From Candidatus Atabeyarchaeum deiterrae (lineage in GTDB: Archaea > Asgardarchaeota > Atabeyarchaeia > Atabeyarchaeales > Atabeyarchaeaceae), in assembly GCA_037310415.1 (NCBI GenBank), contig CP147780.1, forward strand, positions 640,001 through 704,000: a stretch of 64,000 bases of DNA, given 5' to 3'. The translations under genes and the position numbers were made by a program. Positions 32,809 to 39,713 of the stretch are shown here, piece after piece. Each line of letters opens with the position of its first letter. Positions within the stretch are counted from its first letter, which is position 1. The notes beneath the pieces were generated by a model. The model was given only the letters and a program-made list of their open reading frames with translations. It was not told the origin of the DNA and did no database searches.

Positions 32809-33786
32809 GTGAAGACCAAAATCAATGAGATTAGTTGTGCAGGCGGTCCGAAATTGAATAAATGCTCAAAGTGCGGTAGGAACGCTGTCACATTCAGGCC
32901 CTACTCTGGTGAGTACTTATGTAAAGTATGCTTCACTGGATCAGTTGAAGATAAGGTTAGGAGAGCGATTACAGTCAACAGAATGCTGAAGGAAGATGAC
33001 AGAATAGCAGTAGGGCTCTCAGGTGGCAAGGACAGTGTGGTCTTACTACACATCATGAAGCAGATCGAAGAGAAATTTCCTAATTCACGACTCATGGCTC
33101 TTACGGTTGACGAGGGAATATCAGGTTATCGTGAAGAGAGTATAGCTGTAGCAAAGAGAAATGCATTGTTGCACGATATACCCCATTCTATATTCTCTTT
33201 TAAGGATCTTTTCGGCTACACAATCGATGAGATTATGCAAAATGGACGAGTGAAAAACTCGGGCGCTAGCGCATGTTCTTTTTGTGGGTCACTCAGGAGA
33301 AGGGCATTGAACCAGATGGCCAGAGAGCTCGGAGCCACAAAGCTAGCCGTTGGGCATAATTTGGATGATGAGTCTCAAAGCATACTCCTGAACGTGCTAC
33401 GGCCAGACATTCATCGCTTGGCTAAGTTGGTTCCGGCTACAAGTTCCGAATGTAAGAACTTCGTACCTCGAATTAAACCACTTCGGGCGATTCCTGAGCG
33501 GGAAACTGTTCTATATGCATATTACAAAGGAATAGAGTTCCACTCACAAGAATGCCCATACTCGTTTAATGTGCTCAGAGGCGACATTGAATCGATTTTG
33601 AACACTCTTGAAGCCAGGAACCCAGGAGTAAAATACGGTATACTCAGATTCTTGGAGGACTTAGCCCCCCTTCTCGAAAACTATAGACGAGATATCGATT
33701 TTACTCAATGTGAGTATTGTGGTGAGCCTTCTTCGGACACTCTCTGCAATGTGTGCAAACTCTTATCACACTTAGCTCAGAAATGA
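32809..33786 (+). CDS. tRNA 2-thiolation protein (TtuA/Ncs6 family)
   Basis: PP-loop SGGKDS, CSFC, GHNLDD, terminal Zn fingers. Confidence 0.92.
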   Translation: MKTKINEISCAGGPKLNKCSKCGRNAVTFRPYSGEYLCKVCFTGSVEDKVRRAITVNRMLKEDDRIAVGLSGGKDSVVLLHIMKQIEEKFPNSRLMALTVDEGISGYREESIAVAKRNALLHDIPHSIFSFKDLFGYTIDEIMQNGRVKNSGASACSFCGSLRRRALNQMARELGATKLAVGHNLDDESQSILLNVLRPDIHRLAKLVPATSSECKNFVPRIKPLRAIPERETVLYAYYKGIEFHSQECPYSFNVLRGDIESILNTLEARNPGVKYGILRFLEDLAPLLENYRRDIDFTQCEYCGEPSSDTLCNVCKLLSHLAQK

Positions 33787-33802: not shown

Positions 33803-34151
33803 GGGTTATGAACCCCGACTCTCGACATCCTTTACGCTCACCAGTACCCTTCTCTAGGGAATCCACCCCGTGAATCCGAAAGCGCACCCGGTCAAACTTA
33901 CGACTGCTGCCTCCCGGCTCTCGTCGGATTTGTCTACAACGGTCTTCTCCATCTCCCCTACAGGAGATGTTCGACCACCAGATGCCCTCCGGGGCGAGGC
34001 TTCATGTCCCTCGGAAAAGGCTGTATGAACGCTTGGAATGCCTCAAGCCGGCATTCGGCCCGCCGTATAGGGCGTTTGCGGTACAGGGGAGTTCTAGCCT
34101 ATGGCTGGGGATCAGTCTAGGTCCCTAGCCCCCCGCCTAGGCTCATAACCC
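33803..34151 (-). ncRNA. ffs: SRP (7S) RNA with a 31-nt intron; ~318 nt mature
   Basis: Terminal helix GGGTTATGAGC/GTTCATAACCC; Alu TGTA motif; helix 6 GTAG loop; helix 8 GCC-GGGA-GGC-AGCAG; upstream TATA. Confidence 0.93.
34092..34122 (-). other. 31-nt BHB intron in SRP RNA helix 3 loop
   Basis: GGGGG/TCCCC outer stem, CTAG/CTAG central helix, bulges GGA and AAC, CCTA/TAGG inner stem. Confidence 0.85.
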
Positions 34152-34254
34152 CAATGTGGATACCGAAAAATTAAATATAAAGATTTCCTGATGTGGAGAT
34201 TAGGTGGTTTTTGGGCACCAACTGTGTTTGATGTCCTGATCCATGCGTATGCGT

Positions 34255-34539: not shown

Positions 34540-34980
34540 GTGTCGGGGGCAATCATTGTGGGGTACGAATTCCTTGAACACACTGCTGACGTTATGGTTG
34601 AAGCGCACGGGGGATCCCTTGAGGAAGCATTCTGCTTTGCTGCCAAAGCCATGTTCGATACGATGGTTGACTTGTCGAAAGTTGTGCCGAAATCAAGTGT
34701 GAATGTTGAGGTTTCGGCAAGTGACGTCGAAGGTTTGTTGTACTTGTGGCTCGAGGAACTGCTTTTCAGGTTTGATGTCGAGAGGATGGTTTTCTCAGAA
34801 TTCAGATTCCAATTCATCGAGAAAGAAGATGCCCTGATCGGTAGGGGAATTGCAGAGGGTGAGCCTTACGACCCTAAGAAGCATTTGGGGAAAACCGAGG
34901 TAAAAGCAGTAACATACGAAGAAATGCTGATAGTTAAGAGCGATAGGGGTTTCAAGGTTAGGTTCATTCTCGATATATGA
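34540..34980 (+). CDS. Archease (RtcB RNA ligase cofactor)
   Basis: YEFLEHTAD...EVKAVTY...FILDI. Confidence 0.93.
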   Translation: MSGAIIVGYEFLEHTADVMVEAHGGSLEEAFCFAAKAMFDTMVDLSKVVPKSSVNVEVSASDVEGLLYLWLEELLFRFDVERMVFSEFRFQFIEKEDALIGRGIAEGEPYDPKKHLGKTEVKAVTYEEMLIVKSDRGFKVRFILDI

Positions 34981-39620: not shown

Positions 39621-39713
39621 GCCGCCGTAGCTCAGTCGGTCAGAGCGCCAGCCTTGTAATGCACCAGACATGACAGTTGGTGGTCGCGAGTTCGACTCTC
39701 GCCGGCGGCTCCA
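39621..39713 (+). tRNA. tRNA-Thr(TGT) with a 16-nt 37/38 intron (39659-39674)
   Basis: GCCGCCG/CGGCGGC-TCCA; anticodon arm CCAGC-CTTGTAA-GTTGG after excision. Confidence 0.93.

Follow-up and report, generated by a model that had tools for sequence, protein, structure and literature searches.

SRP RNA, the RNA core of the particle that targets proteins, is a universal and essential non-coding RNA. In archaea, introns of the tRNA type are excised at the bulge-helix-bulge (BHB) motif, and the cleavage rule, which derives from the geometry of the tRNA 37/38 intron, places each cut after the second nucleotide of a bulge. Outside tRNA genes, BHB introns are also known from the cbf5 pre-mRNA and from crenarchaeal rRNA genes, where the tRNA endonuclease likewise removes them; the rRNA introns tend to be long and can encode homing endonucleases. 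To our knowledge, and judging from the literature we found, the sole reported link between SRP RNA and tRNA splicing is the permuted gene of Thermoproteus. Specifically, Thermoproteus tenax and T. uzoniensis produce a permuted, circularised SRP RNA (Plagens et al. 2015, eLife, PMC4731332). The Thermoproteus SRP precursor harbors a leader-trailer BHB that is cut by the tRNA endonuclease, and the ligation is attributed to RtcB (PMC4731332). An ancestor of the permuted gene “with simple BHB introns” has been proposed (PMC4731332).

The non-canonical pre-tRNA introns of Atabeyarchaeia, Freyarchaeia, and Thermoproteales provide a second point of reference. Few reported tRNA genes are as heavily interrupted as those of Atabeyarchaeia. 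In these genomes, 92-95% of tRNA genes contain introns, often several and at non-canonical positions, and 228 tRNA introns are reported for Atabeyarchaeia and Freyarchaeia (PMC11291895). SRP RNA is mentioned neither in that study (PMC11291895) nor in a 2026 preprint on Asgard tRNA introns, and a full-text literature search returned no published account of an internal SRP RNA intron. The first-pass annotation of the DNA analysed here had called such an intron distinct from the Thermoproteus arrangement and, as far as it was aware, undescribed; our search agrees.

Here, we analyse the SRP RNA locus of Candidatus Atabeyarchaeum deiterrae within a 64,000-nucleotide stretch of contig CP147780.1 (positions 640,001 to 704,000), hereafter the window, to which all coordinates refer. 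We consider it highly probable that positions 34122-34092 constitute a BHB (tRNA-type) intron in the helix-3 loop of a collinear SRP RNA gene. Analogous to Thermoproteus, a BHB lies in an SRP precursor, and ligation would restore a functionally important loop. In Thermoproteus, however, the gene is permuted, the BHB joins leader and trailer, the junction falls in S-domain helix 8b, and the product is circular, whereas here the gene is collinear, the BHB is internal, the junction would lie in the Alu helix-3 loop, and the product would be linear. With the non-canonical pre-tRNA introns, the candidate shares its motif, its size of tens of nucleotides, and the presumed involvement of EndA, RtcB, and archease, but its host gene is not a tRNA. 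It differs from the rRNA and cbf5 introns in its host RNA and in being a 31-nt, non-coding element. What is new to the literature is SRP RNA as the host of a tRNA-type intron, at a functionally demanding site, a loop that has to be compact if the RNA is to fold; the mechanism is known, and the genome is saturated with such introns.

The SRP (7S) RNA gene occupies 33803..34151 on the minus strand. Rfam model RF01857 scores 131.3 bits over 34148-33806 (gathering score 96.5), and a terminal helix, GGGUUAUGA/UCAUAACCC, pushes the gene ends out to 34151 and 33803. The resulting lengths, 349 nt unspliced and 318 nt spliced, agree with those estimated in the first-pass annotation. Model positions 1-317 are present full-length and in sequence, and the BHB is internal; the swapped halves and leader-trailer BHB of a permuted gene do not occur here. 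An Rfam search of the whole genome (one contig, 2,756,679 bases) finds a single SRP RNA gene. Upstream, a TATA-like candidate, read from the sequence as an A/T-rich stretch at 34171..34181 on the minus strand, is centred about 26 nt from the RNA 5' end. The gene departs from RF01857 in only one large respect: in the helix-3 loop of the Alu domain, 32 nt are left unaligned where the model expects 1.

At this site, the minus strand reads, in order, GGGGGG CUAG GGA CCUA (16 nt) UAGG CUAG AAC UCCCCU GUA. Two 3-nt bulges thus lie on opposite strands with a 4-bp helix between them. The 5' strand of the outer helix, GGGGGG (34129..34134), is also that of SRP helix 3, and it pairs with UCCCCU (34085..34090). 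The central helix pairs CUAG (34125..34128) with CUAG (34094..34097), and the inner helix pairs CCUA (34118..34121) with UAGG (34098..34101). Bulge 1 is GGA (34122..34124) and bulge 2 is AAC (34091..34093), and both are unpaired in the MFE structure. The UGUA motif follows at 34085-34082 and shares U34085 with the 3' strand of the outer helix. All these elements are on the minus strand, and the geometry proposed in the first-pass annotation, CTAG/CTAG flanked by GGA and AAC with helix 3 as the outer stem, is exactly what the strand contains. The cleavage rule predicts a 5' cut between G34123 and A34122 and a 3' cut between A34092 and C34091, which reproduces the 31-nt excision that had been put forward. 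Together, Rfam and the cleavage rule delimit exon 1 (34123..34151, minus strand, ending ...GGGGGGCUAGGG), which supplies UAGGG of the helix-3 loop, and a predicted intron (34092..34122, minus strand) that runs from the A of bulge 1 through the AA of bulge 2. Exon 2 (33803..34091, minus strand) starts with CUCCCCUGUA, and its first C would finish the loop UAGGGC.

Folded in isolation, the 54-nt hairpin adopts the exact 3-4-3 BHB as its MFE structure, at -20.0 kcal/mol. Local MFE folding returns the strict hBHBh' form, with an outer helix of 6 bp (SRP helix 3) and an inner helix of 4-6 bp, both here and in the relatives G001 and L089. In the full-length transcript, the pair probability of the BHB is just ~0.2-0.4, because of a competing pairing between the 5' exon and the 3' part of the intron, which folds of the 99-nt 5' region and of the full RNA both favour. 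Specifically, within 34099-34136 on the minus strand, the intron 3' part (GCCAUAGGCU, with CCCC upstream) is complementary to the 5' exon (AGCCUAGGC, with GGGGG), and full-length folding therefore prefers the alternative structure over the BHB. This complementarity may simply come with the repetition of CUAGG words, or it may be a folding competitor. Folding energies are no better than those of shuffled sequences (z-score -0.2 to -1.9), and we do not use energy as evidence.

Nor is the motif by itself rare. A strict scan of the window (outer helix of at least 6 bp, central helix of 4 bp, inner helix of at least 4 bp, intron of 12-45 nt) yields 4 BHB motifs against a shuffle mean of 4.2 (~3e-5 per position), which is no excess over chance, and a looser scan of the window, with 283 matches, is uninformative. 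The evidence that rises above chance is the position of the motif within the helix-3 loop, where helix 3 serves as its outer stem, the product of the excision, and the conservation of the motif in relatives. The chance frequency of BHB-like motifs is one point in favour of a very different reading, namely that a lineage-specific expansion hairpin of 31 nt is kept in the mature SRP RNA and resembles a BHB incidentally. Another is that Alu expansions do exist: other Asgard lineages have a further hairpin, not a BHB, between helices 3 and 4. We judge retention of the hairpin to be very unlikely, given the product of excision, the pattern of conservation, and the RNA records described below.

Canonical excision of 34122-34092, as predicted by applying the cleavage rule to the motif, joins ...GGGGGGCUAGGG to CUCCCCUGUA... 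and gives the GG|C junction sequence CUAGGGCUCCCC. The predicted product has a 7-nt helix-3 loop, CUAGGGC, which is the loop form of intron-free Asgard SRP RNAs. Removing the intron thus renders the host RNA like its intron-free relatives. Within this loop, all six bases of UAGGGC are complementary to its tertiary partner, GCCCUA of the helix-4 loop (L1.2; 34068..34073, minus strand). The pairing between the two loops covaries across Asgard archaea: UAGCGG occurs with CCGCUG, UAGGCC with GGUCUA, UAGGGG with CCCCUA, and UCGGGC with GCUCGA. Further covarying pairs are UUGGGC/GCUCAA, UUGCCG/UGGCAA, UAGCCG/CGGCUA, and UCGGCC/GGUCGA. The comparison is restricted to lineages in which helix 4 was correctly located, the finder being noisy where an extra hairpin is present or the loop is not 7 nt long. 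Covariation of the loop-loop pairing across the phylum indicates that the helix-3 loop is under selection.

These results bear on three statements of the first-pass annotation. Its compact helix 3 corresponds to the 7-nt loop described above, and its match between TAGGGC and GCCCTA, with the final C contributed by exon 2, is exact. Its third statement, that splicing restores the loop-loop pseudoknot, stands for the topology of the loop and for the sixth base pair, but not for the pairing as a whole, since five of the six bases already reside in exon 1. The topology is restored because, before splicing, the U-A-G of the loop is locked in the central helix. A hairpin kept in the mature RNA would leave U-A-G so locked, in place of the 7-nt loop that all readable intron-free lineages possess.

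All three genomes of the class contain an insert of 30-31 nt in the same place, among them Atabeyarchaeia-1 (CP147779.1), whose SRP RNA gene has the same feature. A pattern scan that added four JGI metagenome contigs to the three genomes brought the set to seven distinct sequences of the Atabeyarchaeia type, and the survey of relatives that had been suggested at the outset finds the BHB geometry in every one of them. Alignment of the seven shows no change in the exons, in either bulge, or in the central helix, but many differences across the 16-nt interior. The ends of the intron are thus fixed and its interior varies. The proposed structure accommodates this variation: all 126 of 126 pair cells are standard pairs, the six pairs of the outer helix hold in all seven sequences, and three of the four inner-helix pairs vary yet remain paired (CG/UG/UA, CG/UG/UA, and AU/GU). 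When the partners are shifted by 1-3 columns, pairing falls to just 35-60%. A shuffle control for covariation in the seven sequences is not significant on its own (131/500), and, given also the small sample, we count the conservation as supportive rather than decisive. Invariant bulges and an invariant central helix around a drifting interior speak against a hairpin retained in the mature RNA. Finally, BLAST of the intron against this genome returns no second copy, so no donor tRNA intron is evident.

RNA-derived records provide the most direct view of the junction. Three metatranscriptome runs contain part of the SRP RNA gene. A contig from sediment RNA-Seq (X2; 98% identical, depth 2.7) aligns over 33930-34099 and then continues with 15 letters that equal 34131-34145. 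Similarly, a soil contig (X6) aligns up to 34099 and continues with 10 letters that equal 34131-34140. Each contig jumps from 34099 to 34131, and each is therefore without the 31 nt. The skip is read from the loose ends of the contigs, with no formal joint called, and the contigs are environmental assemblies that come from different studies and other strains. In all runs, 34100-34148 is covered by loose ends alone. That exactly these 31 nt are missing from two RNA-library contigs, while JGI metagenome contigs and GTDB genomes hold no DNA record without them, again argues against their retention in the mature RNA.

Could the joined contigs instead stem from strains whose DNA lacks the 31 nt? 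Two points favour such an indel polymorphism: a 4-bp direct repeat, CTAG, flanks the segment, and run X6, although its library source is metatranscriptomic, is flagged “probably DNA.” Several observations nonetheless make this extremely improbable. The insert is present in every one of the seven Atabeyarchaeia-type DNA sequences found. Neither JGI metagenome contigs nor GTDB species genomes contain an exact copy of the joined 22-mer, whether with GG or with AA at the junction; the intron-bearing pattern is represented there by the four contigs and three genomes. X2 is RNA-Seq, and its contig ends 3 nt short of the Rfam-defined 5' end of the RNA rather than running into the flank. The joined contigs (185 and 290 nt) are no longer than the SRP RNA itself. 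Regarding X6, 21-23 of the 27 listed diagnostic differences are common to the relatives G002 and L075, which assigns X6 to another Atabeyarchaeia lineage, one whose known DNA is all intron-bearing.

Since CUAGCC stands at both borders of the segment, the point where the exons are joined can be read in two ways, 2 nt apart. The contigs fit the GG|C junction if two mismatches at 34092-34093 are absorbed into the alignment, and they also fit a CUAG|AAC junction. The search for a CTAGGG| junction in RNA that the first-pass annotation had proposed thus delivered the loss of 31 nt, in both X2 and X6, but did not separate these two forms. The second form would arise if the RNA were spliced with both cuts 2 nt upstream, around a central helix GGCU/GGCU, to yield GGGGGGCUAG|AACUCCCC. 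The contig alignments taken at face value, which are unbroken through 34099, have this form, and Hermodarchaeia, discussed below, apparently use the GGCU/GGCU register. With such cuts, however, the Atabeyarchaeia sequence would have no inner helix and a weak outer helix. Moreover, the loop would become UAGAAC, which pairs with GCCCUA at four of six positions, with two central mismatches, and would break the loop-loop pairing that covaries phylum-wide. The mismatches of X2 are also informative. None of its three mismatches appears in the alignment's table of differences, and our reading of the table's listing rule would place them near an aligned end. Together with the invariance of exon 2 in relatives, this placement favours GG|C, read through with two mismatches; the mismatch tally of X6 is compatible with both junctions. 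We therefore hold cuts 2 nt upstream to be very unlikely, and in what follows we use the canonical GG|C junction.

Two further contigs, X1 (depth 365) and X3, come from different studies and are 100% identical to the gene. Both stop at 34069, in the helix-4 loop (GCCC|UA), with no loose end, and their coverage ends there. The stop at 34069/34070 could mean that the strains differ here, that reverse transcriptase halts at a modified base, or that the loop-loop structure interferes.

The genome encodes all the components expected of the splicing pathway: endonuclease, RtcB, and archease. Two proteins match tRNA_int_endo (PF01974), at 103.9 and 70.4 bits; their genes lie at about 215.5 kb and 625.3 kb of the genome. 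One paralogue displays the catalytic pattern KFGADFGVY...H...K (Y...H...K), and the other has no His at that position. The loss of this His suggests a heteromeric endonuclease with one catalytic and one structural subunit. A heteromeric endonuclease is reported to be one of two types able to cut non-canonical introns (PMC5829648). A single RtcB is present, at 582 bits. The archease gene, specifying the RtcB cofactor, lies in the window at 34540..34980 on the plus strand (PF01951, 151.6 bits), divergent from the SRP RNA gene and ~390 nt away. This neighbourhood recurs in five of the five Atabeyarchaeia-type loci with enough flank (the window, L016, L024, L089, and L091), and no archease was found within 1.5 kb of the SRP gene in the Hermodarchaeia loci searched. 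On the other side of the locus, a gene for a TtuA-like tRNA 2-thiouridine synthetase (PP-loop with an N-terminal LIM domain; 32809-33786, plus strand) converges on the SRP gene 3' end. RNA-maturation genes thus occupy both flanks.

A tRNA gene in the window also carries an insert. Specifically, a tRNA-Thr (anticodon UGU) at 39621-39710 on the plus strand, which Rfam scores at 60.3 bits, has 16-18 extra nucleotides in or near its anticodon loop. ARAGORN reports no tRNA in the window and so misses this one. The insert does not parse as a strict BHB; its motif is relaxed, with no unique register.

The following pathway is consistent with these observations. In the primary transcript, helix 3 would run into the 4-bp CUAG/CUAG helix, flanked by the GGA and AAC bulges and capped by the inner hairpin. 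The heteromeric splicing endonuclease would cut after the second base of each bulge, and RtcB with archease would join ...CUAGGG to CUCCCC.... The intron would be released, probably as a 31-nt circle with the predicted junction ...GGCUAGAA|ACCUAGAC.... In the product loop, CUAGGGC, the segment UAGGGC would pair with GCCCUA of the helix-4 loop and close the Alu fold.

Unspliced SRP RNA is presumably non-functional. Given environmental RNA assemblies without the 31 bases, SRP assembly in this Atabeyarchaeia archaeon very probably depends on tRNA-splicing enzymes. A bolder notion is that splicing gates SRP function. Because unspliced RNA would be unable to close the Alu fold, the tRNA-splicing machinery would set the amount of SRP competent for elongation arrest, and the neighbouring archease would be part of the coupling. 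We consider such a gate unlikely.

If the intron is genuine, protein targeting in these Asgard archaea would be dependent on EndA, RtcB, and archease, and tRNA-type introns reach beyond tRNA genes in the closest prokaryotic relatives of eukaryotes. Plagens et al. had postulated a “simple intron” intermediate (PMC4731332), to which an internal BHB intron in a collinear SRP gene would correspond. There is a practical consequence as well: these SRP RNAs score lower when annotated with covariance models, and they will be misdescribed by tools built on the assumption that non-coding RNA genes have no introns.

Inserts in SRP RNA extend to other Asgard lineages. Hermodarchaeia harbor an insert in the same helix-3 loop, as seen in 16 SRP RNA matches from 15 genomes and in ~9 metagenome contigs. 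It reads GGGGGGCUAG AAG ... GGCU(U/C)AA GGCUCCCC, and the spacing of the flanking exon blocks equals that of Atabeyarchaeia. We weighed three registers for its central helix, which remove 27, 29, or 31 nt. The 31-nt register (GGCU/GGCU, with cuts CUAG|A and AA|G) was kept because it is the only one that gives the conserved loop and explains two covariations; the 27- and 29-nt registers do not produce that loop. The variants in question are UAGAGC, which pairs perfectly with GCUCUA, and UAGGGU, which occurs alongside ACUCUA. In this register, exon 2 contributes three of the six loop bases. The Hermodarchaeia motif takes a relaxed form, in which a pair is mismatched or the second bulge has 4 nt, and no clean BHB comes out of MFE folding. 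As a whole, the Hermodarchaeia BHB lies 2 nt upstream relative to that of Atabeyarchaeia. The two introns could be one ancient intron that slid by 2 nt, or they could be two independent gains.

A second site of insertion is the tetraloop of helix 8, where Rfam alignments place insertions of 22-35 nt in four other Asgard families (G029, G008, G043, and G037). In G029, G047, and G043, the helix-8 insert, CGGG AGA ... CCCG AAG, forms a BHB, the removal of which leaves CGGGAG|GGAGCA, like the intact helix 8 of the window. G008 has the 5' half, CGGG AGA; no full BHB was parsed there. In Asgard archaea, SRP RNA introns thus seem to favour two hot spots, and the occurrence of inserts in several families, at the tip of helix 8 as well as in the loop of helix 3, suggests a phylum-wide pattern.

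Finally, Alu helices 3 and 4 are separated in many Asgard lineages by an additional hairpin, perfectly paired and 14-25 nt long, at the usual UGUAA site (for example, UGA-GAGAGGUUCUCCUCUC-GAC). Unlike the BHB intron, this hairpin is bulge-free, and it looks like a retained expansion of the Alu domain.
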